From IMG/VR virus record IMGVR_UViG_2718218127_000003: a stretch of 21,552 nt of DNA; one strand, 5' to 3'. Under the pieces are notes generated by a model, which searched no databases, had not been told where the DNA came from, and saw nothing but the letters and a program-made list of their open reading frames with translations. The number at the start of each line of letters is the position of its first letter. Within the stretch, counting starts at the first letter, position 1. This stretch comes from a virus. Lineage: Duplodnaviria > Heunggongvirae > Uroviricota > Caudoviricetes. Shown here one piece after another: positions 972-17,146 of the stretch. The position numbers were made by a program, and so were the translations under genes.

Positions 972-1555
972 ATCATCCACCCAACTTAACTGAAACCAGG
1001 ATGAAGTATATGCATATAAAGTTCACTTTGCCAAACTTCAGTATAAAAAACCACATAAAAAATAGGGTGTGATAAAAAATACCGTAACAATAAAGCAAAG
1101 GATTATAAATTCCGTTACAGTTACAAATGATACTCAAGAAACAATTCCTTAGGAAAAACTTATTTACAGCCAATAAGTAAGACACTTATATGATATCAAG
1201 TTTTCATAAAACATAACTAGGCTAAATAGCTGCGCCTAATACCGCTACACTTTTGCCAGCCCATGTTTGCCTCCGGGTATTGACCCCTTCTCTACGCAAC
1301 TTCAGTTCCTACCACCAACTTTGCGGCAGCTTTGTAGGATCAATGTCTAAAAGAATAATGGTGACCGATAAGAAAACGACTGAATAACTGCAAATTTTCG
1401 CTCAAAACCTTCCTGTCAGATCCATAGCGAATCAAGTGCTGAATGTCACAGTATCGAACAGAAAACAGTGACGATCTAACCCTTCAAGAATATTCTACGA
1501 TTGTTCTGTTTAGGAAAAGCAAGGCGGGAAGTCGGGAGATAAGTCATTGATAAAG

Positions 1556-1617
1556 TGGCGGAGAGAGGGGGATTTGAACCCCCGGTAGAGTTGCCCCTAC
1601 TCCGGTTTTCGAGACCG
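1556..1617 (-). tRNA. Partial tRNA-Ser(CGA): 3' 62 nt only, from the anticodon stem through CCA; att remnant rather than a functional tRNA
   Basis: The minus strand reads CGGTCTCGAAAACCGGAGTAGGGGCAACTCTACCGGGGGTTCAAATCCCCCTCTCTCCGCCA, which is the anticodon arm (CGA), long variable arm, T arm, acceptor 3' strand and CCA of a serine tRNA. No D arm or 5' acceptor strand is present upstream. Confidence 0.7.
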
Positions 1618-2350
1618 ATGATACAGAGTCGAAAAATCAAAGAGTTAAAAATTTTTCTTGGAATAAATGTCTTAAAATCGTACACGAAAAATCAATGAAT
1701 TACATAACATTAAAGAAGAATATTCCAAGCCTTCTTGAGGCTACTACCTGTTTTCAGGTGTCATTCAGACGTGATTTGCCCCAGATTGGGAAAGCACGCT
1801 TTTTTCTCAGCTATCGTCCTCTTATTTTGCCGTTACATTTCTTTTTGCACTCTAATGATTAATTTACAATAATAATATCGGTAATTATTGAGTAATAATA
1901 AATTGATTATTGCAAATGTAATTTAATTCCATCTTCGCGTTATATTCCAATCTTTAATCTCCGCATGGAACAAGTTGCATGCGTGACTATATTAAGACAA
2001 CTTATAACCACCAAAACATTTGCTTTGCAAACAAAAACAGTGACCATTGACTCTAAGAAAATTCCGATCTATTGTTAGGGTCATCAAAGTTACTTAACAG
2101 TATTCCGAAATGAAAATACAAAGCAAGCTAATTGTCTTATTAAACATTATCATTGCATTTATATTATTTGAGCTTTTAGCTCAAAAATTTGGTTTGAGTA
2201 CATTATTTTAAAGCAAGATAAACAATATCGGGCACTCTAGTTTTTATAATTAACAATTAAACGTCCATAAAATGTTATTTACTTTTGTTCGCTATTGTCA
2301 CATCTTAATATAGTGGCTTACGCCACTCTACTTTCATCACATTTTGTACG

Positions 2351-2385
2351 TTTATGTACTCGCCATGAAGCTCTTTCATGGCGAT
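2351..2385 (+). terminator. Intrinsic terminator-like hairpin in the AT-rich spacer
   Basis: CGCCATGAA-gctct-TTCATGGCG (9-bp stem) followed by ATTTTTATTCTT. Confidence 0.4.
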
Positions 2386-2475
2386 TTTTATTCTTAATCC
2401 AAGAACATACTCCCTACCTATAGCAAAATCACTTTTTGAACAAAAGAATAACGTATTTAGGTAATCATTACGAAT

Positions 2476-3057
2476 TTACCCTATAGGTGCTACTGGCCAT
2501 TCAATATCCGGAGCAGTTGTTGTATTAACACGGTTCAGCAACACCCGATACTTTTTCCAGGCTTCCAGCAACGAGTTTTCTTCCTCCGTTGCGATTTCCA
2601 GATCTACAGCATCCTGAAGTGGCGCAATATGCTCATTCGCTGCCTGCATCAGGCTGTTTTTTGTTTCTTCCGCCTCCCGGATCCGGAATAGTTTTTCTGC
2701 TTCTGCATCTTTCACCCAGGCTGTGCCGTTCCACTTCTGAAACTCCCCTTCCGGGGATAACCAAGTGGCATTTTCCGGTAACGGACCGAGTTCAGAAATA
2801 AATAACGCGTCGCCGGAAGCCACGTCATAAACCGTTTTACCCCGATGATCTTCAACGAGATGCCACGATGCCTCATCACTGTTGAAAACAGCCACGAAGC
2901 CTGCCGGAATATCTGGCGGTGCAATATCGGTACTGTTTGCTGGCAGACCTGTATGAGGCGGAATATATGCGTCACCTTCACCAATAAATTCATTAGTTCC
3001 GGCCAGCAGATTATAAATTTTTATGGTCCGTGGTTGTTCACTCATTCTGAATGCCAT
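2476..3057 (-). CDS. Phage tail fiber assembly protein (Tfa)
   Basis: The N-terminus [54 protein letters not shown] is characteristic of lambdoid Tfa chaperones. The ATG overlaps the stop of the upstream stf fragment (TAATG). Confidence 0.85.
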
Positions 3058-3297
3058 TATGCAAGCCTCACAATATAGTTAAATGCGATGTTTTTGACGG
3101 TGTTTTCCGCGTTACCAGCAGCGTTAACGGTGATGGTATGTCCATGTGAACCAATCGCAACGGAGTGCGTATGAGCACCAATACCGACAGTATGTGCGTG
3201 TGCACCTGCGCTTGCAGCAGTACCCGATACAGAGTGCGTATGAGCGCCTGCAGAAGAAGTGTTAACACTGTATTTAGAATAATCAGGTGATCCACTT
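3057..3297 (-). pseudogene. Side tail fiber (stf) gene, 3'-terminal remnant of about 80 codons
   Basis: My own translation of an alternative minus-strand frame gives ...[79 protein letters not shown], the (G)AHTHSV-repeat C-terminus of lambdoid side tail fibers. There is no start codon; it is fused upstream to the nu1 fragment. Confidence 0.7.
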
Positions 3298-3625
3298 CCA
3301 CCACTTCAGCGGAGTCTCTGGCATTCTTCAGTTCCTGTGCGTCGGCCTGCGCACGCGTAAGTCGATGGCGTTCGTACTCAATAGTCCCTGGCTGGAGATC
3401 TGCCTCGCTGGCCTGGCGCAGTTCTTCAACCTCCCGGCGCAGCTTTTCGTTCTCAATTTCAGCATCCCTTTCGGCATACCATTTTATAACGGCGGCAGAG
3501 TCATAAAGCACCTCATTACCCTTGCCACCGCCTCGCAGAACGGGCATTCCCTGTTCCTGCCAGTTCTGAATGGTACGGATACTCGCACCGAAAATGTCAG
3601 CCAGCTGCTTTTTGTTGACTTCCAT
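3296..3625 (-). pseudogene. nu1: Terminase small subunit Nu1, N-terminal 110 codons only
   Basis: [110 protein letters not shown] matches lambda Nu1 as I recall it. After codon 110 the frame runs into out-of-frame stf sequence (the listed 185-aa ORF is a chimera). Confidence 0.85.
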
Positions 3626-3850
3626 TGTTCATTCCACGGCCAAAAACAGAGAAAGGAAACGACAGAGGCCCAAAAGCTCGTTTTCAGCACCTGTCGTTTC
3701 CTTTCTTTTCAGGGGGTATTTTAAATAAAAACATTAAGTTACAACGAAGAAGAACGGAAATGCCTTAAACCGGAAAATTTTCATAAATAGCGAAAACCCG
3801 CGAGGTCGCCGCCCCGTAACAGCCCGGATCGCCGGAAAGGACCCGTAAAT
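3626..3850 (-). other. Lambda-type cos site (cosQ-cosN-cosB); 12-nt cohesive end at 3803-3814
   Basis: The reverse complement of 3721-3814 reads GGGCGGCGACCTCGCGGGTTTTCGCTATTTATGAAAATTTTCCGGTTTAAGGC..., which is the lambda left-end/cos sequence. The flanking CGGAAAGGACCCGT matches the lambda right end. It sits directly upstream of nu1. Confidence 0.85.
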
Positions 3851-3968
3851 GAGATGCTTTGTTGTTTTCTTGTTGGCTGTTCAACTACATGCAAGCATAT
3901 GGCATAATATTTAATTGATAATCTAATAGTTATAAAAACTTGCCCCAAAACCTTAACGGAGACTAAGA

Positions 3969-4661
3969 ATGTCCAGAGAAGGAACGTTAGATTTATTGCA
4001 AGAAGTTGAAGAAACCGTTGAAATATTAAAAGATACGCAACAAATAAAACCAGTAAAGGTTAAATCAATACTTGAAAATTTAAGAAGCGCATTAGAATAC
4101 GTTGCGAATGATAGTTATGAAAAACATACCACTAACCAATCAACCCCTCGGCCAAAAATTTATTTCCCATACGGCGAGAAAAAATTTTTAGATGCTTTCT
4201 TTATTAAAAAATTAAACTGCCAGCAACCTGAATTATCTCCATTATATGCAGTTTTTGTTTCAATCCAAGACTATCAAACTGGTAATAACTGGCTTGGAAT
4301 GATGTGTAACCTCACGAACGAAGTAAAACATAGGAAACCAATCCCATTGAGTGAAGATAGTATTGTTCGAGGAATAGATGTTAATATCAATGGGTTTGGA
4401 TTAATTAAGACAGATGCTACATCAAAAATCATTTTCAGAGATAATTTCACCAATGGACAGAGAATTGAAGACTTCACCATTGAAAATGGTAAAGTTGAAA
4501 AATCAGGGAACGGAATCCCCATCAATATTAACATAACCGAAGAGAAAAAAATAAGATTCCACGGTACAGATTATGAGGTCATTCCTTTTGTAGAGTTATG
4601 TCTAAAAGAAATAAGAGATTTTGTTAATGAAGCATATGAAATTTTAGATGCCATTGAATAA
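3969..4661 (+). CDS. Hypothetical protein, 230 aa, no recognisable domain; gene at the bor position between Rz and cos
   Basis: ATG at 3969 is preceded by GGAG with 7-nt spacing. The gene is AT-rich relative to its neighbours and lies on the strand opposite the late genes. The product is hydrophilic with no signal peptide. Confidence 0.7.
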   Translation: MSREGTLDLLQEVEETVEILKDTQQIKPVKVKSILENLRSALEYVANDSYEKHTTNQSTPRPKIYFPYGEKKFLDAFFIKKLNCQQPELSPLYAVFVSIQDYQTGNNWLGMMCNLTNEVKHRKPIPLSEDSIVRGIDVNINGFGLIKTDATSKIIFRDNFTNGQRIEDFTIENGKVEKSGNGIPININITEEKKIRFHGTDYEVIPFVELCLKEIRDFVNEAYEILDAIE

Positions 4662-4756
4662 TAATGATTAAGTAACATGGCAGGTAATCTATTTAAACCG
4701 GCCATGTTACAAATCATTGACGTAGAGAAAAAATGTAAAGTATATCCTTTATATAC

Positions 4757-5260
4757 TCAATTGTAATTTGATGTCCTCACCGACTCATAAACGCGCTCAC
4801 ACGTCATTCCAGCCCGGTAGCTTTCGTCAGATCGCTCAGCATAATATCGAGCTTCTTCTGTAAGGCGGCCGAGCATGTCGGCGAGCACTGCGGCGTCGGC
4901 TCCGGCTGTTTTGCTTCTGACGGCAGCGGCAAGATCTGCGGTGTGCTTTGCGGCGTCCAGGCGGGCGGCAAGCTTTGTTGCTTCGGTGCGCAGCTGGTTA
5001 ACAGTGGCAGACAGGCCAGCAGCAGTGGCAGCAGATTTAGCTGCTTGTGCTTGTGCATCTTTTACAGCCTCATCACGGGCAATTATGCGCCCTTGTTCAA
5101 TCATGCGGGCTGCGGTCTGCGCGTTCGCTGTTTGCGATGATTCCGCGCTGTCACGTTCCGCCCACTTTTTTTCCCAACCGCGGCTACACCATATATTTCC
5201 AGCGATAAACGCACTGGTCACTAGTACCGCGGCAACAATAAGCTGGGAGCACAGGCTCAC
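4757..5260 (-). CDS. Rz-like i-spanin (inner-membrane spanin)
   Basis: N-terminal TM helix [23 protein letters not shown] followed by an Ala/Gln-rich coiled coil. The GTG start overlaps the endolysin stop (GTGA). Confidence 0.7.
4804..5058 (-). CDS. Rz1-like o-spanin lipoprotein, embedded in the +1 frame of Rz
   Basis: [23 protein letters not shown] has a lipobox (LTSC) and is followed by a Pro-rich segment. The gene lies entirely inside Rz, as in lambda Rz/Rz1. Confidence 0.65.
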
Positions 5261-5790
5261 TGGTCTATCCCCCAGCAGGTTAATGCACTCTCCTGGTCAC
5301 GACGAATAACCTGACCGTAACAATTATTTGAACGAATACGGCAATCACGTCCACCGTCCTTTATCCACCAGCGAATCGCCTCGCATGCGCCTTTACGATC
5401 ACCGGCATTAAGCCGCTTATAAAACGTCGACGGAAAACACTTACCAGGGCCAATGTTATAGGGACAGAATGACGCGATACCGGCTTTCTGTGGCTCGGTC
5501 AGTGGAACTTTTATATTGCGCTCCACCCATGCCAGCGCCTTATCCCGCTCAATGGCGTTAACCTGGGCGCATTTTTCCTTCGACAGTTTCATTCCCGGAA
5601 TAACAGGTTTACCGTCCACCATCGTTGCTCCCCGACAGATGGTCCATACGCCGGAGCCATCGCGGTATGCAGTGGTGTGATTCCCCTCTTTTTCATCAAG
5701 AAACTGATCGAGAATGTCAGGTGCAGGAGCACTGGCGGCAATCAGTGCCAGAACAGCAGCCGACAGGCTGTATCTGATTTTTACGTTCAT
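5257..5790 (-). CDS. Phage endolysin (GH24 lysozyme) with an N-terminal signal-anchor (SAR-type), RrrQ-like
   Basis: [56 protein letters not shown]... matches lambdoid lysozymes of the Qin/21 type. Confidence 0.85.
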
Positions 5791-5924
5791 GGATATTTAT
5801 CAGGATTTATCGGTTTCTGAACCCTGGATATGTTAAGCATTCAGCCCGTCAGTGGTAGGACACTGGCGCTCTGGTTAAGGATTATGGGGGATGCAGGCTG
5901 GGCTACCCCATCTGAGGATTTGAT

Positions 5925-6164
5925 ATGCAAAAAGAAGTTTTTATCAATATTACAGCTGACTGCTCATCTCCTGCATCAACAGCAAAAGAAATTGAAGCTC
6001 TTAAATATATGATTACAGTAATATTTACCGTATTGGACCAGAATGAAAAAAATGGAATCATTCATCAATTAAATGAACATGTAAATAATCCATATATCAA
6101 AAGCAATCTGGAAATGTTGCTACCAATGAAAGATATTGGAAAACCAACTGAAACAAAAGGCTAA
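5925..6164 (+). CDS. Small hypothetical protein (79 aa) inserted in the lysis cassette on the opposite strand
   Basis: ATG at 5925 is preceded by GAGGA with 6-nt spacing. The gene is AT-rich and has no recognisable family. Confidence 0.45.
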   Translation: MQKEVFINITADCSSPASTAKEIEALKYMITVIFTVLDQNEKNGIIHQLNEHVNNPYIKSNLEMLLPMKDIGKPTETKG

Positions 6165-6475
6165 CAACCCGTAATCGAGTTATCTGAACTGTTAATTTTT
6201 ATGGTATACCGCGCCTCTGAACAGGGGCGCGTTTCTGGCAACAGCTCGTCCCCTTCACATAACCCGGCAGCAACATCCAGGAAGACCTGTCTGATGCTCC
6301 TTCTGGCTGCTGCCTCATAAAACTCCAGCGCGGCACCTTCAACACGGTCCAGCGAGATGTCCAGGTCAAAAATTTCACCGTCAAAGCGTTTTTTGTCCCG
6401 TAACGCTAAAGTTACCGTAACTTTATTCTCAAAATTGCGGATCCCTTTCACAATCAGTTCATAGTTTTGAGTCAT
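6161..6475 (-). CDS. YdfR-like protein (DUF1327 family) of the Qin-type lysis cassette
   Basis: MTQNYELIVKGIRNFENKVTVTLALRDKKRFDGEIFDLDISLDRVEGAALEFYEAAARRS... ATG at 6473-6475 with GGGGAGAG upstream. It sits between holin and endolysin, as ydfR does between essQ and rrrQ. Confidence 0.7.
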   Translation of the reverse strand: MTQNYELIVKGIRNFENKVTVTLALRDKKRFDGEIFDLDISLDRVEGAALEFYEAAARRSIRQVFLDVAAGLCEGDELLPETRPCSEARYTIKINSSDNSITGC

Positions 6476-6479
6476 TGAA

Positions 6480-6695
6480 TTACTCTCCCCGTGCAGCCTT
6501 GCGCTTATCTTCTTTAATCTTGAAATAAAGGTTTGTCAGGTACGTCAGCAGGCCAAATACCAAGCTACCCAGCACACCTATTGCTGCCCACTGTGAGGGC
6601 GTGACTTTATCGAGCAGCTGTAAAAACCAGTAGCCAGCACTGCCTGCGGAGGTGCCGTAGGCAATGCCCGTTGTTAACTTATCCATGGATTTCAT
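6480..6695 (-). CDS. Class II holin, phage 21 S (pinholin)-like, with a dual-start motif
   Basis: [71 protein letters not shown], 71 aa, with Met1 and Met4 (antiholin/holin starts). Strong SD GGAGGTG. Confidence 0.85.
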
Positions 6696-6786
6696 AGCCT
6701 CACCTCCGCAAATAACGGATGGTGTACACGGTTCGGAACGAAGAGGAAAGGTATAGAAGTTACATTAGCGTAAGGCTTGAACATCT

Positions 6787-6821
6787 ATTCAAAAAGAAAA
6801 ACGCCAGCGATTATTCTGGCG
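6787..6821 (-). terminator. Intrinsic terminator downstream of the AraC-like gene and upstream of the holin
   Basis: On the minus strand: CGCCAG-aataatcg-CTGGCG followed by TTTTTCTTTTTG. Confidence 0.55.
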
Positions 6822-6888
6822 TAGCTGAAAGCATCATACAATTATCAAATACGAAAATTACAAAATCATTAAAACGCATCACGTTACA

Positions 6889-7614
6889 TCATGTCTTTTC
6901 TAAAAAAAATCTTGATGAATATTGATGGGGAGGAACACCAAAATATCTTCTGAAAACACTTACAAAATATGACGTGTTTTCATAACCGCATATCTCAGTA
7001 ACTTTTCCAACAGAATATAAATTGTAGCTTAATAACCTTTCCGCCATCACCATTCGCTCTTCAAGAATTAACTTACTAAATGATAAGCCTTCGTGCTTTA
7101 ATTTTCCTTTTAACAGACTTTCACTCAGATACAGTCTTGAAGATATATCACAAAGTCTCCATGCTGCAGATATATCCGTGTGAATAATAGCCTTAACTTT
7201 ACTTCCTAAACTATTAAGACATCCAAATAAAAAACTTTGCACTATTTTCTCTGAAGATAAGATAGCAAGACATGCAAGTGATATTTGATTTCTAACAAAA
7301 TCCACAGTTCTGCCATCACAATTCAAGCATGCAATCAAGTTCTTTAACAATGAAAAATCTTCACATTCCACCATCAAGTATGCCGGATAAAACCTTCTTA
7401 CAGAAAAAGGTGAGAGTGTGTTGCTTTTAAAGAAATCATTAACTGTTTTCTCTTCAACATCTACGATCATTGCATGATCTATATTTGATGAAAAAAAATC
7501 TTTTAAATTGTAATCAATGAGAACAGCACTTCCTTTTTTAAATAAAATATCTTCTTTACCAATTCGGACATCAAACGAGTTCAACACCAAAATGATAGAA
7601 CATATGTATGGCAT
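6889..7614 (-). CDS. AraC/XylS-family transcriptional regulator, AppY/EnvY-like (241 aa from the ATG); paralog of 228..971
   Basis: ...WRLCDISSRLYLSESLLKGKLKHEGLSFSKLILEERMVMAERLL...CGYENTSYFVSVFRRYFGVPPHQYS. ATG at 7612-7614 is preceded by AGGTGG. The gene and its 350-bp upstream region are AT-rich. Confidence 0.8.
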   Translation of the reverse strand: MPYICSIILVLNSFDVRIGKEDILFKKGSAVLIDYNLKDFFSSNIDHAMIVDVEEKTVNDFFKSNTLSPFSVRRFYPAYLMVECEDFSLLKNLIACLNCDGRTVDFVRNQISLACLAILSSEKIVQSFLFGCLNSLGSKVKAIIHTDISAAWRLCDISSRLYLSESLLKGKLKHEGLSFSKLILEERMVMAERLLSYNLYSVGKVTEICGYENTSYFVSVFRRYFGVPPHQYSSRFFLEKT

Positions 7615-7965
7615 ATTATCCACCTGATATCATTGGGGTTACACCAGGTAAGTATAGGTGGAAAATCAATATTCGCCAGTTCAACAATAAGGAAAATCTC
7701 ATTGCATCACAAGTATAAAATTATGTATTTAACTCACAAAGACAAATTATTAAACCAATCTGTTATATTATATATAGCTGCGTGGAATCATAATATTATA
7801 TATTTTGACTGGCATGTTTACCAACTTTAAGTTGCATCTCAATGGTTTCTTCAGCGTAAACAGAGTTTTTATACAAACTGACACTCTGGGTATCATAGTG
7901 TAGTTTTTACGATTGTAAATATCCTGCATGCAGGAACTCATCCTTTTGGATGATATCGCATACAA

Positions 7966-8925
7966 TTAATTTACCATCAGTCTTAGAGCCAGTTCGTCCG
8001 GATAGGGATCGAAGTAATTCTGTGTAAGCAAGTAATCATTAGGATACTCACCCAGATAATGCTTCAGCAGAGTCAACGGCGCAAGAAGAGGTAATGTGCC
8101 AGAACGATAGTTAAGTATAACCTCGCTCAACTCTTTACGCTGGCGTGTACTTAAGTAGTTACTAAAATACCCCTGTATATGCATCAGCACATTCGTGTGA
8201 TTTTTACGTGATGCAGGTTTTCTGAGAATCGCCATCAGCTTATCACGATACACCTCAAAGTATGATTCAAGGTCCGCCCACTCGTGTATTGCAGCCACAA
8301 ATGGTCCCATATCTTTATAGCCTGCCTGACTATGCGCCAACAACTGAAGCTTATAACGACTATGAAAAGCTAATAACTCTCTTCTTGATAATTTCTCCTT
8401 GTAAAGGTGATTGAGCTCATGCAAAGCAAAAACTCTTTCAACAAAATTCTCACGAAGCACTGGATCATGTAATCGCCCATCCTCTTCAACCGGTAGCCAG
8501 GAAAACTTTTCCATCAAAGTGCTCGTAAATAGTCCCACTCCATCTTTACGACCTCGATTACCATTTTCATCATAGACACGCACGCGCTCCATGCCACAGC
8601 TGGGAGATTTAGCACAAACCACAAACCCCGATACATCCTTTAATTTGTCCATATAAGAACGACTAAACTCTGTCATTCTCTCTGTCACATCCTCATTCTG
8701 GTCGTGGCTGAAACACATCCGAATATTTCCTTGCGTCGAGCGCACAAGACGTAGAGCAGGACGCGGAACTGGCAGCCCTATAGCCATTTCCGGACATACT
8801 GGTCTGAATGTTACCCATTCCACTAATTTGTCCATTAAAAAGTCAGCTCTTTTGTGACCACCATCAAAACGAACAGCAGAACCGGCCAGACAACCGCTGA
8901 TTCCAATCACAGGTTTTTTTATCAT
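7966..8925 (-). CDS. YbgA-family protein: N-terminal DUF523 (TudS-like, Cys-rich) fused to C-terminal DUF1722
   Basis: MIKKPVIGISGCLAGSAVRFDGGHK...PVCPEM...VVCAKSPSCGME carries the conserved cysteines and SPSCG motif of the DUF523/thiouracil-desulfidase family, with a helical C-terminal half. Strong SD GGGGGAGG. Confidence 0.75.
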   Translation of the reverse strand: MIKKPVIGISGCLAGSAVRFDGGHKRADFLMDKLVEWVTFRPVCPEMAIGLPVPRPALRLVRSTQGNIRMCFSHDQNEDVTERMTEFSRSYMDKLKDVSGFVVCAKSPSCGMERVRVYDENGNRGRKDGVGLFTSTLMEKFSWLPVEEDGRLHDPVLRENFVERVFALHELNHLYKEKLSRRELLAFHSRYKLQLLAHSQAGYKDMGPFVAAIHEWADLESYFEVYRDKLMAILRKPASRKNHTNVLMHIQGYFSNYLSTRQRKELSEVILNYRSGTLPLLAPLTLLKHYLGEYPNDYLLTQNYFDPYPDELALRLMVN

Positions 8926-9117
8926 ATCCTCCCCCTTGACTAATTCATTAACACATAAACTGTGTAGTGCACGGAATAAATTGCCTTTCTGGCGTCATCA
9001 CTGACAATTTTTCTGTTATGGACTATTCCTAATATAGTATGAAAGTTCTTTAAGTGATCGGTCGTAATCATCTATCTTTCATACTTACTCTCAACTATCA
9101 AAAGTACAGGATTTATT

Positions 9118-9642
9118 ATGAAGTTATGGCCTGTGTTGACTGGCATTGCACTCTCTTTCACTCTTATAGCATGTAAGGCCCCGACACCACCTAAAGGTGT
9201 GCAGCCGATTACAAATTTTGACGCCAACCGCTACCTCGGAAAGTGGTATGAAATAGCTCGCCTCGAGAACCGGTTCGAACGTGGTCTGGAACAGGTCAGC
9301 GCTACTTATGGAAAACGGAACGACGGAGGGATTCGTGTACTTAACCGTGGATACGATCCAACGAAAAATAAATGGAGCGAGAGCGAAGGTAAAGCATACT
9401 TTACTGGAGATACTAAAACTGCAGCGTTGAAGGTTTCGTTTTTTGGCCCCTTCTATGGTGGCTATAATGTAATCAAACTGGATGATGAGTATAAGTATGC
9501 TCTTGTCAGTGGTCCGAACAGAGAATACCTATGGATTCTGGCAAGGACCCCAACTATTCCAGATAAAGTAAAAGCAGACTATGTGCGAACCGCTCAAAAG
9601 TTGGGATTCAATGTCAATGAATTATTATGGGTTAAACAATAA
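9118..9642 (+). CDS. blc: Outer-membrane lipocalin lipoprotein, Blc family (paralog-like, prophage-borne)
   Basis: Lipoprotein signal MKLWPVLTGIALSFTLIAC, then ...NFDANRYLGKWYEIARLENRFERGLEQV...GKAYFTG...LKVSFFGPFYGGYNVI...YLWILARTP..., the bacterial lipocalin signature. Confidence 0.85.
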   Translation: MKLWPVLTGIALSFTLIACKAPTPPKGVQPITNFDANRYLGKWYEIARLENRFERGLEQVSATYGKRNDGGIRVLNRGYDPTKNKWSESEGKAYFTGDTKTAALKVSFFGPFYGGYNVIKLDDEYKYALVSGPNREYLWILARTPTIPDKVKADYVRTAQKLGFNVNELLWVKQ

Positions 9643-9667
9643 AATCCCTACCCGAAATAATACTTAT

Positions 9668-9697
9668 TAGAAAAAAACCAGCCTTTGGGGAGGCTGG
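9668..9697 (-). terminator. tR'-like intrinsic terminator about 100 nt downstream of Q
   Basis: On the minus strand: CCAGCCT-ccccaa-AGGCTGG followed by TTTTTTTCT. The position matches the lambda pR'-tR' unit on which Q acts. Confidence 0.55.
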
Positions 9698-9797
9698 CTA
9701 AATCAGGAAACAAGCTGTTATATGATAATAACTACGTTGCGATTCCAACATTTAAAATGTTAGACTAATGAGAATCAGACAGCAACTTTTCCTTTAA

Positions 9798-10175
9798 TTA
9801 TTTCGAACAATCAGCATCCATCTCCAATCGGAGATCCAACACCATCAGCATACCCTCCACTACGCCCTCAGCTTTCTGGAGCATCCTGCCAACCCAACAA
9901 TCAGATCGCCCATGCTTACGTGCAAGCGCCATAAAAGTCATGCCGCCGACATAATAGTCCACCAATAAATCGTGCAAATCGCTGTTGTTCTTTTTCAGAC
10001 GGGCCATGCACCCGCAAATGATCATCGCGTCATCGTCACAACATTGCGGGCGAGATTTTACTTTTGAAGGAATTAATCCCTTAAAACCGGCGGCAATGGA
10101 CGACCAGGTCACATCTTCATGATTATTAGCCGCCCATGCTCCCCAACGCTCCAGAACCATCTGAATATCACGCAT
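9798..10175 (-). CDS. Late-gene antitermination protein Q (phage 82/21 type, QuuD-like)
   Basis: [76 protein letters not shown]... The ATG at 10173-10175 is preceded by GGAG; the TTG 4 codons upstream used by the ORF track is less likely. Confidence 0.85.
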
Positions 10176-10192
10176 CAACTTTCTCCACAAAA

Positions 10193-11188
10193 TCAGGCCA
10201 GCACACCAATCGCCAGCGCACGATCGATAAAACGAAATATCAGCTCCAGCTGGGAGCCATACTTCTCTTCAAATGCCACGGTATCCGCATGCAGCTCGTC
10301 GTGATGCTTTCTGCACAAAGGCAACACAAAAAGGTCATGCGCTTTTGTACCCATTCCACCCTGACCGTGGCCTATCAGGTGATGGGGATCATCGGCGGGC
10401 TTTCCACAACATGCACACGGCTGCGTCTTAACCCAGCGCGTGTACTTTTCATTAACCCAGCGGCGACGTTTTGGGCGTAACATAAAAGACTCCGGCGACT
10501 CCGGCTCCACTTTCAGCGCCAGCACCTTTTTCGCTTTATCCTGGATGATGCTGGTGGCAGGAACCGAAGGAACAAGATCACTTTCCCGGGTGACAGACGG
10601 CACAACAGGCTTCGGTAATCTCAGTGCCTTACGGGCTGCACTTTCCGGTAAGGCATCCGCCAGGTCATTACGAACCAGCCACCAGCACAGTTCCGGCATT
10701 GTCACAACGTGACTGTCATCAAAACCGAGATCCCGACGCACGACAGACAACACCCAGCGGGCACAGTTATCCGTTGCCATTGATTCCAGCCGTTCCGTGA
10801 ACTGATCGCGCAGCTGGTTATCGCAGTGCCAGCACAGACGGATTGCGCCCGGAGCGTGTCGCATTGTGGTCATGTTCTCGCTGTGCCAGTCGGAATGAGG
10901 CCACTGGCAGCCTTTTTCACGAAGTAACCAGCTTTCAAGACATTCCACGCCACCAGCACGACGGATCACCGCCTCATTGCGGAACACAGACCGAACGGCA
11001 GGATCATCCGCCAGTGGTTGTAATGCCGCCGGAACGGCACCACTGGAAAAAGATGAATAATGTTCCGGCTCAGGCTCCAGCAGGACACGCCCCTGCATAA
11101 ACAGGGGCATCAGCTCTGAACCGGGTCTGAACAATACGATCCCCATACGCGGGGCAACTTCAGGGGTCAGTAGTGCTCTCACGGTCAC
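10193..11188 (-). CDS. DUF968-family prophage protein (YdfU-like) with a C-terminal HNH-like Cys/His motif
   Basis: C-terminus ...[47 protein letters not shown]. It lies immediately upstream of Q, as ydfU does in Qin. The start is GTG and uncertain. Confidence 0.7.
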
Positions 11189-11189
11189 C

Positions 11190-11763
11190 TCAATGAACGG
11201 TATCGAGCAGCTTTAACAGCTCAGGGAATCGGGATTCGAAGAAATGCGGCTGCGTCTCGCGCGGATTTGCGGGACTGGTGATATTCTTGCCGAACATGCA
11301 GCCTTTCGCTGTCAGCGACCAGAATTTTTTGATGTTGTTAATCGCGGTACGGCTGTATCGTTCGCGCTGCTCGACGATCCCCAGCTTCACCATCTGGTGA
11401 TATGCCTGATTAGCTGTCAGGCGGATACCATACTGCTTCAGCAGTGCACTCAGTGACAGCGTGGGGCGGCTTGAGCCATCAGGCGCGTCAGCAGGAGCAT
11501 CAATGGCATAGCGCGGTGCCAGATTCGGTACCCTGGCGACGCGCCTTACGCGTTAACCAGCCTTCTGCTTCCAGCCGTGCGATAGCCGTCCTGACGGTAC
11601 TCATCCCCGCGCCAATCTGACGGGCAATAGTTTCAATTGATGGCCAGCACACACCTTCGTCATTACTGAAATCAGCCAGGCGGGCCATAATTGCCACGCT
11701 GGATAATTTCATGCCTGATGCAGCGCAACCATCCCATACATAGCCGGTTAATTTAGTGCTCAT
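11190..11763 (-). pseudogene. Helix-turn-helix phage protein (replication/regulatory-like), apparently frameshifted near 11500-11520
   Basis: The 87-aa ORF (MSTKLTGYVWDGC...RLEAEGWLTRKARRQG) stops at 11500, and protein-like sequence continues in another frame (RYAIDAPADAPDGSSRPTLSLSALLKQYGIRLTANQAYHQMVKLGIVEQ...) into the 67-aa ORF ending at 11190. Confidence 0.5.
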
Positions 11764-12111
11764 GACCGACCTCTATTTCCCTGAATTTACGACGAAACTG
11801 TTCGAGCGGGCTGAAGCACTCATGCTCATAGCCTTCGCGGAGGTAGATAACTCGTTGTGTTTCCGGCTCCCAACGAATGACTCTGACGGGCACTCCGTAG
11901 TGATCTTTGAACCAGCGGTTAACTTGTCGCAAAGGACTGTCTCCTTCTGCCGGTTGAAATCACCCACAGCCCACTCAGCAAAGCTGTGGGTTACAATTTC
12001 CCTGTCACCTGGTACATTAACTGCATAGCAATACTCCACCTTCGCTTTTCCACCCGGTACAGGAAGCGCAATCAGTTGCGAGCGACGGTAGTGTGTTGTT
12101 AAACTGTTCAT
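11753..12111 (-). pseudogene. Hypothetical phage early protein, frameshifted near 11940-11975
   Basis: The N-terminal frame ([50 protein letters not shown]) then degrades, while another frame gives protein-like ...[62 protein letters not shown], whose stop overlaps the next ATG. Confidence 0.5.
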
Positions 12112-12671
12112 GCGTTAGTTTCTCCACAGTCACGACACGCCACGGCGCCCGGAGCTGCACACTCGCGGGCGTCATTACTTTCTGAAATGCAAAAGATTTT
12201 GTAGACCAGTGCTGCATGCTCCTGCAGCTTCGAAATTGAGAGATACAGCTCGTCGTTAATTGCTGTCTTCTCATGCGGTTCCACTACACCGTCTTCGATT
12301 GCTGAACGAATCTGTTTTGAATAACTGCCGATCTGTTCAATGACTTCCAGCAGACGCTGGTTAATATCGGCGTTGTCCACATCCTCGACGTCAGGAAGAG
12401 ACACAAAGACGCCATTTGCAGACTGCGCCACAGCGTCAGCAATGAAGTGAGTTCCACCAGCACGTTGCAAAATCATTGCCCATCCCAGCGGGAAAATCTG
12501 ATCGCCATCGGCACGAAGGCGGTTAAATAATGCGTTCTCTGTTACATCCAGCCAGTCAGCCGCTTCAGCGTAACCACCCGGCAACGCCGCGATAGTTTTT
12601 CTGACAGCTTTCACGTACCACTCAGGCTGTTTTTCTATTTTCCAGTGATGCTTACCCACGATTAGCCTCAT
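12108..12671 (-). CDS. Phage regulatory protein, CII-like / YdaT-like, downstream of cro
   Basis: 187 aa with ATG at 12669-12671. Its stop overlaps the next gene start (ATGA). It is second in the pR-side operon after cro, as ydaT/cII are. Confidence 0.6.
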
Positions 12672-12702
12672 CGTTCTGTGGTTAAAAATTGAAAGTGTTC
12701 TG

Positions 12703-12903
12703 CTAATCTTTCGGATAGATATCCGGTCTTAAGTCAGATTTCGTAATTGCACCTGACGTGCATTGCTCAAGTTTTTTAGCCAGCACAAAACTGGCTTTTT
12801 TATAGCCATTGAAAACCAGCCGTAAGTAGCCAGGTGTTGAGCCAACTTTTCCGGCCAACTCGCCCTGCTGTTCTTTGGTTAAAGAGTCCCAATACGCTTT
12901 CAT
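12703..12903 (-). CDS. Cro-like HTH regulator (YdaS family), 66 aa
   Basis: MKAYWDSLTKEQQGELAGKVGSTPGYLRLVFNGYKKASFVLAKKLEQCTSGAITKSDLRPDIYPKD. ATG at 12901-12903 with SD GGAGGT. Divergent from the cI-like gene. Confidence 0.8.
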   Translation of the reverse strand: MKAYWDSLTKEQQGELAGKVGSTPGYLRLVFNGYKKASFVLAKKLEQCTSGAITKSDLRPDIYPKD

Positions 12904-12906
12904 ACA

Positions 12907-12978
12907 ATATGTACCTCCGGTGTACATATTACATGATTGAAATGAACCTTCAAGATACTTGTACCTTAACGGTACAAG
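12907..12978. promoter_or_regulatory. Immunity operator/promoter region (oR-like) with two palindromes between cro and cI
   Basis: ATATGTAC-ctccggt-GTACATAT (12907-12929) and CTTGTACC-ttaac-GGTACAAG (12958-12978) share the half-site (A/T)TGTACC. Confidence 0.5.
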
Positions 12979-12993
12979 GGTTTTAATTTCGTT

Positions 12994-13668
12994 ATGAAAA
13001 CAATCCATGACATCCGGCGGTCTAACGCCAGAAAACTGAGAGATGGTGTTGGCGGGAATTCTTCCTTTGCCACTATGATTGATCGCGAGCCAACCCAGAC
13101 CAGCAGGTTTATGGGAGATGGTGCTACTAAAAATATCGGTGACAGCATGGCACGACACATCGAAAAATGTTTCGACCTGCCTGTCGGATGGCTCGATCAA
13201 GAACACCAGACAACGAACATCACAAAAAAACCTGATGTTTCAATCACTAATAAACAAATCACATTAGTCCCTGTCATATCATGGGTACAGGCCGGAGCAT
13301 GGAAAGAAGTTGGATATTCTGAGGTTGATTTGAGCACAGCAGAAACGTATCCCTGCCCTGTACCCTGTGGGGAAATGACTTATATCTTGCGGGTGATAGG
13401 TGATTCAATGATTGATGAGTACCGCCCGGGAGACATGATTTTTGTCGATCCTGAAGTACCTGCCTGCCACGGTGACGACGTTATTGCATTGATGCACGAT
13501 ACAGGTGAAACCACCTTCAAAAGGTTGATAGAAGATGGGACACAGCGTTATCTCAAAGCGTTAAACCCAAACTGGCCTGAGCCTTACATTAAGATCAACG
13601 GTAATTGCTCTATAATTGGAACTGTGATTTTCTCAGGAAAACCAAGAAGATACAAAATCAAAGCCTAA
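12994..13668 (+). CDS. cI-like prophage repressor: N-terminal HTH, C-terminal S24 (LexA-like) autopeptidase
   Basis: The C-terminal domain has an AG cleavage site (VQAG/AW), the GDSM serine motif and a downstream Lys (TFKRL). The ATG has almost no SD, consistent with a leaderless pRM-type transcript. Confidence 0.85.
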   Translation: MKTIHDIRRSNARKLRDGVGGNSSFATMIDREPTQTSRFMGDGATKNIGDSMARHIEKCFDLPVGWLDQEHQTTNITKKPDVSITNKQITLVPVISWVQAGAWKEVGYSEVDLSTAETYPCPVPCGEMTYILRVIGDSMIDEYRPGDMIFVDPEVPACHGDDVIALMHDTGETTFKRLIEDGTQRYLKALNPNWPEPYIKINGNCSIIGTVIFSGKPRRYKIKA

Positions 13669-13688
13669 TCAATGTTTATGAACCTGCT

Positions 13689-13712
13689 TCGGCAGGTTTT
13701 TTTATACTTGAC
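13689..13712 (+). terminator. Intrinsic terminator after the cI-like gene
   Basis: AACCTGC-ttcg-GCAGGTT followed by TTTTTTT. Confidence 0.6.
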
Positions 13713-13715
13713 AAT

Positions 13716-13749
13716 GTACCTTTGAGATACATAATGTACCCAAGAGAAA
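13716..13749 (+). promoter_or_regulatory. pL-like promoter overlapped by an operator palindrome
   Basis: TTGACA-N16-CATAAT. The spacer contains ATGTACC-tttga-GATACAT (13722-13740), the same half-site and 5-bp spacing as the oR palindromes, plus a further ATGTACC at 13742-13748. Confidence 0.5.
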
Positions 13750-13816
13750 CAACAAACAGGCAGGACGCCCACGAAGTATCCGCCTGGGGCATATGAAGTC
13801 CAGGATGATTCGTTAG

Positions 13817-13846
13817 CAACAAAAAAGCGCCCTACAGGACGCTTAG
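13817..13846 (-). terminator. Intrinsic terminator downstream of the 173-aa gene
   Basis: On the minus strand: AAGCG-tcctgtaggg-CGCTT followed by TTTTGTTG. Confidence 0.45.
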
Positions 13847-13885
13847 CTCTTTAACAATCTGGGTATCATCCAACCAATGCAAGAT

Positions 13886-14407
13886 TTAAGGAATCCAAGG
13901 CGAATTCAGATCTCGCCCCAACTCACGTAATGATCTTGGTCGTTCGTACATCGGATTTTTTTCCATAAGAAATTTATTTTCACAGTGAAGGCAACGGCTT
14001 GTAAGAAAATGAGAAGTTTTACCTACTGGAAGCGGATGAAGTATCGATTTTATATTTTTGGAATAACAAAGTGGGCACAGATGCACAGTTATTTCTTTTC
14101 CACTCACAATTTCATTTTTAGAGTAAACAAAAGCACCAGAGTCAAGCTGATCAAGGACATATCCTTCTACCTTGGCACAAAAATCTTCAAACTCTGCAAT
14201 TTTTGCTTTGAGATGCATCACCTCTTCATCACGAAGGCGGATCGCATCGCCAAGAGAGAAGCATTCTGCCTGAAGCGTGATTAGTTTGTTCTGGAGTTCA
14301 ATGGTTGCAGCTTTAACTTCTGCATCCGTTTTCGCGTCATTAATAACCTTAGCAAGACCGGCAGTCTCCTTTATAGCGGCCATAGCCGCAGACAGTTCAG
14401 CTATCAC
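13886..14407 (-). CDS. Hypothetical protein, 173 aa: N-terminal coiled coil and C-terminal CxxC-X22-CxxC zinc-ribbon-like motif
   Basis: ...HLCPLCYSKNIKSILHPLPVGKTSHFLTSRCLHCENKF. The gene is AT-rich, convergent with cI, and has its own terminator. The start is uncertain (GTG at 14405-14407 or the ATG 8 codons in). Confidence 0.55.
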   Translation of the reverse strand: MIAELSAAMAAIKETAGLAKVINDAKTDAEVKAATIELQNKLITLQAECFSLGDAIRLRDEEVMHLKAKIAEFEDFCAKVEGYVLDQLDSGAFVYSKNEIVSGKEITVHLCPLCYSKNIKSILHPLPVGKTSHFLTSRCLHCENKFLMEKNPMYERPRSLRELGRDLNSPWIP

Positions 14408-14876
14408 GTTGAATACTCAGCTAGTTGTTGGGGATATCCAGATTAACCAAATCCTTGTTGTTGGGGAATAACTAGGTCCACCTCGCCTGATGTGGCTAAA
14501 AGCAGGCACATAACAGCTAAGTATTTTCAACCAGAGAGAATCCTTAGCGTTGTGGTGAATGCGGCTCAGCGCACGCGGGTTAAGGTTGAGGCTGACAGTC
14601 GACCTTCTGTGGATACCCACCCGCCTGGTGTGCAACCTTCGCCAGGCACCGGGAGGCACCCGGCACCACAACTTTATGCTGTGTGTAGTCCTGGCGGTAT
14701 CAGCTTGTACCCTTGCTTCCGGCTGGTACCGTCCTTTTTACAAAACAGAGAAGAGCATCACCGGACGACGGGCTCATAACCCAATCCATCCGGGCGGCTG
14801 CCACCGCAGGTGTTCTTCTCTGTTTTGTGGAGAAACCAACCGACCCTGCAGGGTCGATATGATGGGGAGCAGCAAA

Positions 14877-15239
14877 ATGGCTAGCGAACGCAGTACTGAT
14901 GTGCAGGCATTTATCGGGGAGCTGGACGGCGGCGTATTTGAAACCAAAATCGGCGCAGTTCTCAGTGAAGTCGCTTCCGGTGTGATGAACACGAAAACCA
15001 AAGGTAAGGTCTCGCTCAACCTGGAAATCGAACCGTTTGATGAGAACCGTGTAAAAATCAAACACAAACTCTCATATGTTCGCCCGACTAACCGCGGGAA
15101 AATTTCCGAAGAAGACACCACCGAAACGCCGATGTATGTCAATCGCGGTGGTCGCCTGACTATTCTGCAGGAAGACCAGGGACAATTACTGACTCTTGCC
15201 GGTGAACCTGACGGAAAACTCCGCGCAGCAGGTCGTTAA
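14877..15239 (+). CDS. YfdP-like prophage protein (120 aa)
   Basis: MASERSTDVQAFIGELDGGVFETKIGAVLSEV... ATG at 14877 is preceded by GGGGAG with 7-nt spacing. The upstream in-frame extension is GC-rich and low-complexity and is rejected. Confidence 0.7.
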   Translation: MASERSTDVQAFIGELDGGVFETKIGAVLSEVASGVMNTKTKGKVSLNLEIEPFDENRVKIKHKLSYVRPTNRGKISEEDTTETPMYVNRGGRLTILQEDQGQLLTLAGEPDGKLRAAGR

Positions 15240-15304
15240 TATCGTTTTTAATAAACTGATTATTTATCTCATCACTGAATATCTTTATATAGTGAGGACT
15301 TATT

Positions 15305-16129
15305 ATGTCTCAGAACTTAGACGCAACCGCAATTAATCAAATCCATGCCCTTATTTCTGCTCAGGGTGTTAATGAAATTATCAGTAAGATTGGTGCCGAT
15401 GCTGTGGCATTGCCTGAGAATTTCCGCATTCATGATCTGGAAAAATTTAATTTAAATCGCTTCCGTTTCCGTGGTGCGCTTTCCACTGCCAGCATCGATG
15501 ACTTTACCCGTTATTCTAAAGATCTTGCAGATGAAGGCACCCGCTGCTTTATCGATGCTGATAATATGCGAGCCGTCAGTATGCTTAACCTGGGTACTAT
15601 TGATGAACCAGGTCACGCAGATAACACCGCCACTCTCAAACTGAAAAAGACAGCACCGTTCTCTGCCCTGTTGTCTGTTAACGGCGAGCGTAACTCCCAG
15701 AAGTCACTGGCAGAATGGATTGAAGACTGGGCCGACTACCTTGTGGGCTTTGATGCTAATGGTGACGCCATTCAGGCAACAAAAGCGGCTGCGGCGGTCC
15801 GTAAAATCACGATTGAAGCAAACCAGACCGCTGATTTTGAAGACAATGACTTCAGCGGCAAACGCTCTCTGATGGAGTCTGTCGAAGCGAAAACCAAAGA
15901 CATTATGCCAGTAGCATTTGAGTTTAAATGCGTTCCGTTTGAAGGCCTGAAAGAACGTCCGTTTAAATTACGCCTCAGCATTATCACTGGTGATCGCCCT
16001 GTACTGGTTCTGCGCATTATTCAGCTGGAAGCAGTGCAGGAAGAAATGGCTAACGAATTTCGTGATCTGCTTGTTGAAAAATTCAAAGACAGCAAAGTAG
16101 AAACCTTTATTGGTACTTTCACCGCCTGA
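15305..16129 (+). CDS. YfdQ-like prophage protein (DUF2303 family), 274 aa
   Basis: Good SD (TGAGGA). The size and position match yfdQ in the CPS-53-type early-left module. Confidence 0.75.
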
Positions 16130-16141
16130 TTTCATTACTGC

Positions 16142-16166
16142 AAATGCCCCTGCGGGGGCATTTATG
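16142..16166 (+). terminator. Strong stem-loop between the yfdQ-like and yfdR-like genes (possible attenuator or partial terminator)
   Basis: AAATGCCCC-tgcg-GGGGCATTT, a 9-bp GC-rich stem, followed by AT-rich sequence but no clean U-run. Confidence 0.3.
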
Positions 16167-16256
16167 GAAACGTAATTAACTCAATAATCGCCTGATGGCG
16201 AGGGTTTTCTTTAACCAAAATTCAGCGCGGTGCAGCGCATATACGTGGAGAACAAA

Positions 16257-16793
16257 ATGTCATTTATTAAAACTTTTTCCGGGAAGCATTTTTATTATGA
16301 CAGGATAAATAAAGACGACATCGATATTAACGATATCGCGGTTTCCCTTTCAAATATCTGTCGCTTTGCCGGTCATCTTTCGCACTTCTACAGCGTCGCC
16401 CAACATGCGGTTCTTTGCAGCCAGCTGGTGCCGCAGGAATTTGCTTTTGAAGCGTTAATGCATGATGCAACAGAAGCGTATTGCCAGGACATTCCCGCAC
16501 CACTGAAACGCCTTCTTCCTGACTATAAACAAATGGAAGAAAAAATAGACGCCGTAATCCGTGAGAAATACGGGTTACCCCCAGTTATGAGTACGCCCGT
16601 GAAATATGCCGATCTCATCATGCTGGCAACCGAACGCCGCGATCTCGGGCTTGATGATGGCTCTTTCTGGCCTGTACTGGAAGGTATCCCGGCAACAGAG
16701 ATGTTCAACGTGATTCCACTGGCACCGGGCCATGCCTACGGGATGTTTATGGAACGCTTTAACGAGTTATCGGAGTTACGCAAATGCGCATGA
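16257..16793 (+). CDS. HD-domain phosphohydrolase, YfdR-like (5'-deoxynucleotidase family), 178 aa
   Basis: ...FAGHLSHFYSVAQHAVLCSQL...ALMHDATEAYCQDIPAPLK... is an HD motif. ATG at 16257 with GGAG upstream; the GTG at 16230 used by the ORF track is less likely. Confidence 0.8.
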   Translation: MSFIKTFSGKHFYYDRINKDDIDINDIAVSLSNICRFAGHLSHFYSVAQHAVLCSQLVPQEFAFEALMHDATEAYCQDIPAPLKRLLPDYKQMEEKIDAVIREKYGLPPVMSTPVKYADLIMLATERRDLGLDDGSFWPVLEGIPATEMFNVIPLAPGHAYGMFMERFNELSELRKCA

Positions 16794-17146
16794 ATGTTTT
16801 CGAAATGGAAGGGTTTCTTCGTGGGAGATGTGTACCGCGAGATCTGAAAGTAAATGAAACAGATGCTGAATACCTGGTGCGTAAATTCGATGCGCTTGAA
16901 GCTAAATGTGCAGCACAGGAAAACAAAGTAATACCAGTGTCAACTGAACTGCCACCAGCAAATGAAAGTGTTTTGTTATTCGATGCTAACGGAGAAGGCT
17001 GGCTAATTGGCTGGCGTTCTCTCTGGTACACCTGGGGACAAAAAGAAACCGGAGAATGGCAGTGGACATTTCAGGTCGGGGACCTTGAAAACGTCAATAT
17101 CACTCACTGGGCAGTAATGCCAAAAGCACCGGAGGCTGGAGCATAA
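16784..17146 (+). CDS. DUF551-family prophage protein (YfdS-like), 120 aa
   Basis: C-terminal Trp-rich segment ...GEGWLIGWRSLWYTWGQKETGEWQWTF... SD GGAG. Overlaps its neighbours, consistent with an operon. Confidence 0.75.
   Translation: MRMNVFEMEGFLRGRCVPRDLKVNETDAEYLVRKFDALEAKCAAQENKVIPVSTELPPANESVLLFDANGEGWLIGWRSLWYTWGQKETGEWQWTFQVGDLENVNITHWAVMPKAPEAGA

Follow-up and report, generated by a model that had tools for sequence, protein, structure and literature searches.

Overlapping ymfM and DUF4222 genes and a deletion scar with a recurrent endpoint in the O gene account for two apparent frameshifts in an Escherichia coli prophage remnant

The stretch analysed here (IMG/VR virus record IMGVR_UViG_2718218127_000003; 21,552 nucleotides (nt), referred to as the window) contains the early-right part of a decayed e14/SfII-type lambdoid prophage of Escherichia coli, in which two adjacent loci on the minus strand (11753..12111 and 11190..11763), situated between a cII-like gene and a DUF968 gene, raise the question of why recognisable protein sequence switches reading frame in the middle of each. 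An earlier reading made from the letters alone (hereafter, the sequence-only reading) had taken both for frameshifted genes or, alternatively, for assembly indels at homopolymers, and had expected that the prophage probably cannot replicate. Both frame switches were recovered by open reading frame (ORF) listing and six-frame translation; judged from comparison with intact relatives, however, neither is due to an indel within one gene. Instead, the region is explained, with high confidence, by a native overlap of two genes, ymfM and a DUF4222 gene, at the first locus, by a 3,050-nt deletion at the second, and by an endpoint of that deletion within the replication gene O that recurs among E. coli prophages.

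The window (21.5 kb) matched E. coli strain MB06022 (NZ_CM129892.1, assembly GCF_053103455.1) at 100%, and window coordinates are obtained by subtracting 3,737,279 from those of NZ_CM129892.1. All genes discussed at both loci are encoded on the minus strand (for coordinates see Table 1). At the first locus, the segment 11529..12200 was base-for-base identical and gap-free to the early region of phage vB_EcoM-689R6 and 98–99% identical to phages SfII and SfIV; since the DNA equals that of 689R6 without gaps, the apparent frameshift is present unchanged in deposited phage genomes. The longer of the two ORFs at this locus corresponds to K-12 YmfM (b1148) in identity as well as in synteny (same ymfK-ymfT-ymfL-ymfM order), and consists of a conserved N-terminal part of ~57 amino acids (aa) and a C-terminal part of ~53 aa, which runs through the DUF4222 gene in another frame. 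The shorter ORF lies in the -1 frame relative to ymfM, overlaps it by 160 nt (11773..11932), and matched PF13973 with 67.3 bits (cut-off 27) over profile positions 3-52 of 53. The ymfM ATG overlaps the TGA stop of ymfL (ATGA), and DUF4222 begins with a TTG located 7 nt after an AAGGAG Shine-Dalgarno sequence; translation of ymfM would accordingly be initiated by ATGA coupling to ymfL, and that of DUF4222 from a Shine-Dalgarno sequence and a start codon of its own that lie within ymfM. At the other end, ymfM stops 9 nt before the ATG of the O gene, and DUF4222 stops 8 nt after that ATG, overlapping the O gene start by 11 nt. This spacing around the O start was common to all five lineages described below, and the stop positions suggest that both ORFs are translationally coupled to the replication gene. 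Sequence searches of the PDB with DUF4222 and YmfM returned no meaningful match. Taken from these sequence features, ymfM and DUF4222 are most readily understood as two separate, natively overlapping genes with nothing broken, and that the short ORFs of 11753..12111 be genuine separate genes was the outcome which the sequence-only reading had itself named beforehand as speaking against its frameshifts.

For conservation and selection, the overlap was compared with four further lineages, ~70-74% identical to the window at the nucleotide level (Klebsiella phages ST101-KPC2phi6.3 and KpF5; Pantoea phage AH07; coliphages mEp390 and Eeyore). The DUF4222 ORF was 59-64 aa long in every lineage compared, starting with ATG in the four other lineages, and each lineage carried an ORF of 108-128 aa with an upstream start, which runs through DUF4222 in the +1 register and ends ~20 nt before the DUF4222 stop. 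In the openness test, the DUF4222 protein of each lineage was back-translated with synonymous codons drawn at random in proportion to E. coli usage; the recoded overlapping frame was stop-free in 3.5-11.5% of trials per lineage (0.035-0.115), and the frame being open in all five lineages has a joint probability of the order of 1e-6. The lineages are nearly independent samples, because the synonymous sites of DUF4222 are saturated (proportion of synonymous differences (pS) 0.68-0.78, not lower than the 0.74-0.83 of the neighbouring O gene). The open antisense frame was uninformative (prior ~0.5).

Within the overlap, only the DUF4222 frame was constrained. The ratio of non-synonymous to synonymous substitution rates (dN/dS) of DUF4222 was ~0.04; for YmfM, the N-terminal part (codons 1-59) gave 0.34-0.37 against the two Klebsiella phages and 0.68 against Eeyore, and the overlap part gave apparent values of 4-6 and 1.8, respectively. 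The ymfM ORF was nevertheless open in all 135 loci examined (90 distinct sequences from E. coli and others, including Klebsiella-type and Eeyore), across which the DUF4222 protein was almost invariant and the YmfM tail carried many substitutions, never being interrupted. A protein search yielded 92 YmfM relatives, all of them enterobacterial and mostly of 102-117 aa without a DUF4222 domain, the typical relative having a conserved N-terminal half (44-63% identity among the 102-117 aa proteins) and a variable, Ser/Thr-rich C-terminal half. Rare proteins with the YmfM N-terminus fused in frame to DUF4222 were also present (P0030, P0052, P0059, P0065, and P0090), and probably represent sequencing errors or secondary frameshifts in Logan/ENA assemblies. 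From these patterns, DUF4222 appears to be a conventional, strongly constrained gene and the N-terminal half of ymfM a real part of a protein, and we read the ymfM tail as a segment which must be translated or at least kept open, with its sequence free; such an open, free tail would be compatible with translational coupling to the O gene or with a requirement on composition.

Among the competing explanations, the one that survives best, although we consider it unlikely, is that only DUF4222 is real and that ymfM is a chance open frame, or a peptide of ~57 aa with a meaningless tail, the phenotype attributed to ymfM then stemming from DUF4222. Two findings weigh against the overlapping pair and in favour of this alternative, i.e., the Prokaryotic Genome Annotation Pipeline (PGAP) calls DUF4222 and does not call ymfM, and the C-terminal half of YmfM is without amino-acid constraint, evolving like out-of-frame sequence with many polymorphisms at DUF4222-synonymous sites beside a nearly invariant DUF4222; furthermore, the 63-aa phrog_20047 covers only aa 1-63 of YmfM. 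A chance frame would not, on the other hand, be expected to show purifying selection and conservation of its N-terminal part in proteins of 102-117 aa, ATGA coupling to ymfL, or a long frame that, in each of five saturated lineages, runs open until 9 nt short of the O ATG.

The same alternative bears on a published phenotype. A filamentation screen retrieved the e14 region ymfL'-ymfM-ymfN' (PMC3614548), the ymfN-ymfK region came up again in uropathogenic E. coli (PMC6206680), and cloned K-12 ymfM, unlike ymfL, blocks Z-ring formation and causes filamentation, and has been equated with SfiC (bioRxiv 10.1101/2020.11.19.390815). DUF4222 or an overlapping ORF is not mentioned in that preprint, the words stop codon, truncation, western, and tagged are absent from it, and it reports no protein-level control. 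By coordinates, the pBAD-ymfM insert would hold the Shine-Dalgarno sequence, the TTG start, and 53 of the 59 codons of DUF4222; insert content and missing control both leave room for DUF4222 as the source of the effect. Because cloned ymfM carries most of DUF4222, the SfiC-type phenotype may belong to either of the two products, and the published division inhibitor "ymfM" would, on sequence grounds, be a dual-coding locus in which either product may be the active one. Extrapolating from K-12, the block should still yield a YmfM/SfiC-type division inhibitor upon SOS induction. The annotations conflict as well: K-12 RefSeq lists ymfM (b1148) and not DUF4222, PGAP does the reverse for MB06022 and calls DUF4222 and not ymfM in thousands of genomes, and the assignment of the SfiC phenotype deserves a control.

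At the second locus (11190..11763), two unrelated genes were found to be fused. The first 78 codons belong to an O-like replication initiator, with a winged-helix DNA-binding domain (HTH_36, E-value 4e-12, aa 22-70) and matches to phrog_391 "replication initiation O-like" (positions 1-81 of 298; phrog_391/11896 profile positions 1-83), and the ORF 11500..11763 comprises these 78 native O residues followed by nine foreign out-of-frame codons with a stop at 11500. The remaining part is ~97% identical to the 3' end of an 810-nt KilA-N-family gene of phage 689R6 and four E. coli prophages; the KilA-N domain (PF04383) covers aa 7-109 of the intact relative, and no Pfam match was obtained for the remnant, which corresponds to aa 158-269. 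Consistently, PGAP annotates adjacent partial pseudogenes on the identical record, i.e., an O piece "missing C-terminus" and a KilA-N piece "missing N-terminus." The intact order in 689R6 is ymfL, DUF4222, O (942 nt, 313 aa), yfdN, a Dam methylase gene, a LexA-like gene, rusA, KilA-N (810 nt, 269 aa), and ydfU/DUF968. By exact mapping, 3,050 nt are missing (L002 959..4008), comprising the rest of O with its iterons, yfdN, the Dam methylase gene, the LexA-like gene, rusA, and the KilA-N domain. With a slash marking the crossover here and below, the parents read ...CGCCAGGGTA/ACCGC... (O) and ...GTTGGCTTA/CCGAAT... (KilA-N), and the product reads ...CGCCAGGGTA/CCGAAT...; as the product equals O to the left of TA and KilA-N to the right, the crossover lies in the shared TA (11530-11529). 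A single illegitimate-recombination event removed the 3,050 nt by joining O nt 235 to KilA-N nt 472 at TA, leaving a dead O' stub of 87 aa and a promoterless KilA-N tail. The C-terminal two thirds of O and the iteron array were not found in the remnant, being inside the deleted segment. In intact O, tandem 15-nt repeats (TCTGACCCGTCAAAA and variants) occupy nt ~310-373 (L002 3871..3934) with further degenerate copies, and are presumed, by analogy with lambda, to be the origin iterons. Because the C-terminal part of the initiator and these iterons are gone, the element cannot replicate autonomously; the replication defect proposed by the sequence-only reading therefore held, and the frameshifts to which it was attributed did not.

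The exact window junction occurred in one record of 5,426 complete E. coli genomes and is considered a private, recent event, for which an assembly error is the less likely source. A collapsed or chimeric join would be in keeping with two observations, namely that the junction is seen in this single record only, a 100% match which presumably is the source assembly (a point that also counts against a true deletion), and that LR-33, the closest relative at the same chromosomal position, has a different junction. It is nonetheless very improbable, since 20 other junction classes, from unrelated genomes, are built alike (same O nucleotide, TA, direct deletion), and since the parents share only TA and scattered matches, without a repeat long enough to mislead an assembler.

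That each locus is one ancestral gene with a small indel, whether a frameshift mutation or a homopolymer sequencing or assembly error, would fit the change of frame in recognisable protein sequence at both loci and the few database proteins that join the YmfM N-terminus in frame to DUF4222, and is hardly credible given that the alignment to intact relatives, by which such indels were to be located, has 0 gaps at the first locus and lacks 3,050 nt at the second, that no homopolymer of five or more exists in the ymfM ORF, that the 59-aa ORF spans the whole DUF4222 profile, that fused variants are rare and the two aligned ones (P0065 and P0030) change frame at different points, and that the two parts of 11190..11763 match unrelated families, with genes that are separated by 3 kb in intact phages. 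At neither locus did the two halves fall on one intact homologue, and at neither was an indel of 1-2 nt found at the switch point against intact relatives. Equally negligible is programmed -1 ribosomal frameshifting with a YmfM N-terminus/DUF4222 fusion of ~119 aa as the true product: DUF4222 does lie in the -1 frame, which is open for nine codons upstream of its TTG, and the database contains such fusions of 118-119 aa, but there is no X XXY YYZ slippery heptamer anywhere in the ymfM frame, DUF4222 has a strong Shine-Dalgarno sequence and start codon of its own (ATG in four other lineages), and the open stretch upstream of it varies in length between lineages. The sequence-only reading is thus corrected for over-reading: in place of frameshifts and assembly errors, the region displays ordinary prophage decay.

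The breakpoint in O is a recurrent deletion endpoint and not a random one. The O-side endpoint GGGTA/ACC (T234-A235, window 11529-11530) was common to at least 21 independent deletion junctions in E. coli prophages, with 16 left-retaining and 5 right-retaining classes having distinct partners; these were collected by an alignment of truncated-O E. coli prophages and by exact-pattern scans of IMG/VR, one set flanking the site and a further set built to leave out the intact allele. At two control TA sites in the O gene, scans of this type gave 0 junctions. Native partners were recovered for 13 classes, of which 12 have TA at the crossover, and most recovered partners resemble the O site on both sides (GGnTA/YC vs GGGTA/ACC). 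In each of the 13 classes with a native partner placed beside intact O, the event is a direct deletion (1.1-9.9 kb); inversions were absent. In complete E. coli genomes, the site was intact in 1,581, and only a broken copy was present in ~417; all 13 sampled partial matches in such genomes end or start at O nt 229-240. Across the first 120 IMG/VR loci, the only further internal junctions beyond nt 229 were those at nt 325 and nt 340 (L093 and L024), both directly after TCAAAAT, i.e., at the equivalent position in two successive iterons. The events in MB06022 and LR-33, although at the same chromosomal locus, are independent because their KilA-N remnant alleles differ at ~12 of 430 nt, and a derivation of the window junction from the LR-33 junction was rejected for the same reason. 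In P276M, the fusion O(1-77)::KilA-N (L012, 391..1374) is annotated as an intact 327-aa protein; compared with a simple TA crossover, two further nt (AG) are gone and the frame is restored, which may reflect selection for KilA-N expression.

The site has the context CCAGGGTA/ACCGC and includes a CCAGG motif as well as the palindrome GGTAACC, whose centre is A235; 7 nt past the site lies an isolated iteron-like copy (ATGCGTCGAAT), and ~70 nt past it the main iteron array. No unusual single-strand fold was detected when the site was checked for a hairpin or cruciform (DNA fold z -0.3). Of the following recognition elements, compared by eye, none fits all junctions: GGTNACC (BstEII-type), the Dcm/Vsr motif CCAGG, the Chi-like GCTGGTTA 26 nt upstream, Hin/Gin-type crossover sites, the gyrase/topoisomerase I consensus, and insertion sequence (IS) target preferences. 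Most likely, a DNA end or 3' terminus would form at ...GGGTA and be rejoined or extended at look-alikes of the type GGnTA/YC. This could proceed by a staggered break or nascent 3' end at TA that is joined at short look-alike sites, or by an exchange at the central TA between a cognate site and pseudo-sites. We advance only tentatively, and with somewhat less than even confidence, that an unrecognised process acts on T234-A235, be it a sequence-specific break, an arrest of replication, or a recombinase-like exchange, and removes either side of lambdoid prophages time and again. It counts against the hot-spot part of the explanation that neither an enzyme nor a structure explains the hot spot. 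The searchable literature (queried for oweE/oweS and for cryptic prophage O deletion microhomology) yielded no description of it, which is weak evidence of novelty. If true, the proposal would provide a mechanistic driver for the loss of the replication/immunity module in e14, CPS-53, and many other cryptic prophages. The recurrent endpoint, shared by the textbook K-12 pseudogenes oweE and oweS, suggests that the domestication of prophages involves more than chance erosion followed by selection, and offers a precise site for tests of mechanism.

Table 1. Features at the two loci with their neighbours, and O-gene junctions at T234-A235 in other prophages. Coordinates refer to the window; a slash marks the crossover.
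Feature	Position	Strand	Junction	Evidence and remarks
ymfL, CII/CP76-like early regulator	12108..12671	-		Pfam Phage_CP76 E 1.6e-13; PGAP "protein YmfL"; upstream neighbour
ymfM ORF, 112 aa	11773..12111	-		109/112 aa and 333/339 nt identical to K-12 b1148; phrog_1170 full length, E 3.8e-70
DUF4222 gene, intact, 59 aa	11753..11932	-		PF13973 E 8.6e-19; phrog_1343 full length; PGAP WP_001250269.1
O-like initiator 5' remnant, nt 1-235, 78 codons	11529..11763	-		Identical to the start of the 942-nt O gene of vB_EcoM-689R6
Deletion junction	11528..11530	minus-strand reading	...CGCCAGGGTA/CCGAATCTGG...	Three-way alignment; TA 11530-11529 in both parents
KilA-N-family gene 3' remnant, last 339 nt, 112 codons	11190..11528	-		phrog_129 positions 161-269/273, E 4e-48
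DUF968 gene (YdfU-type, HNH-like), intact	10193..11188	-		Pfam DUF968 E 7.3e-81; PGAP; downstream neighbour
K-12 e14 oweE			GGGT/GATGG	Partner terminase gene
LR-33			GGGTA/TCCCGGG	Partner 85 bp upstream of KilA-N gene, probably 3' end of rusA-like gene
P276M			GGTA/CAGCC	Partner KilA-N nt ~56; extra 2-nt loss gives in-frame fusion
PS00260.4			GGGTAAC/AGCGCA	Partner tail-fibre gene, in frame
K-12 CPS-53 yfdO			CATCATA/ACCGC	Opposite direction
Loci with a junction at this TA				L003 (8404); L015 (~3087); L011, L012, L016, L069, L083, L097, L140, L147, L152-L163

Both loci are part of a prophage remnant of ~16.5 kb (window ~438..16880), which keeps the LexA-type repressor gene ymfK (12994..13668, plus strand), cro (ymfT), ymfL, DUF968, Q, and lysis genes as well as two moron genes (lipocalin and YbgA); no integrase, head, or tail genes were found in the PGAP annotation of the whole element. 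The remnant thereby still retains an SOS-inducible early operon (repressor, cro, ymfL, ymfM, and DUF4222). That the element is replication-dead is supported, as one defect among several, and this loss is a minor one because the remnant is already without integrase and virion genes and carries IS1 and IS3. A second fusion scar at 1019..1587 joins a terminase 5' piece to a tail-fibre 3' piece: according to PGAP, a DNA-packaging (terminase) gene "missing C-terminus" (1228..1587) overlaps a tail-fibre gene "missing N-terminus" (1019..1240), and every head and tail gene between the two pieces has been lost. IS1A (2378..3075) and IS3 (3516..4678) are inserted between this packaging remnant and the lysis genes. 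An Rfam scan of the whole window gave IS009 (2516..2714, inside IS1) as its sole match, and none in the region of interest. A YbgA-family gene and a lipocalin gene (7966..9642) separate the antiterminator gene Q from the lysis genes, which is where lambdoid phages usually carry their cargo (moron) genes. A hypothetical gene just upstream of yfdP (14552..14862) is labelled "frameshifted" by PGAP and may, unlike the two loci discussed above, be a genuine frameshift. On the yfdQ side, the prophage ends with an IS1 fragment beside a truncated ABC-transporter permease gene (16737..16880), where the integrase and the attachment site are missing.

Compared with known systems, the window shares with K-12 e14 the early order ymfK-ymfT-ymfL-ymfM-ymfN (oweE'/aaaE') in near-identical sequence, as well as an O-like gene that breaks off after nt 234 and is fused to another gene. 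The e14 partner is the terminase gene, located ~9.6-9.9 kb downstream in intact relatives, and the in-frame fusion yields the chimera YmfN, an O/terminase fusion for which PMC3614548 refers to Mehta et al. 2004; in the window, by contrast, the partner is the KilA-N 3' end, located 3 kb downstream and out of frame. With vB_EcoM-689R6, SfII, and SfIV, the window has ymfL, ymfM/DUF4222, and the first 235 nt of O in common (98-100% identity) and, further downstream, the KilA-N 3' end and the DUF968 gene (~97%), whereas these phages carry a full 942-nt O with 15-nt iterons, yfdN, dam, the lexA-like gene, rusA, and a complete KilA-N gene. K-12 CPS-53 (KpLE1) yfdO/oweS is broken at the same TA of O (...CATCATA/ACCGCAATGCG), likewise with TA microhomology, but as a mirror image of the window, with O nt 234-942 kept and the upstream part deleted to 17 bp before yfdP. 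Overlapping dual-coding gene pairs are known from phages, as in lambda Rz/Rz1. The ymfM/DUF4222 pair resembles Rz/Rz1 in that a longer ORF contains, in another frame, a second one that carries start signals of its own, both being conserved across lineages, and differs from pairs of that type in that only the DUF4222 frame is constrained in the overlap, the longer ORF seeming only to stay open. The second locus represents a deletion scar typical of prophages, comparable in kind to the K-12 pseudogene oweE, and the first is an intact overlapping pair that is already annotated, albeit inconsistently.

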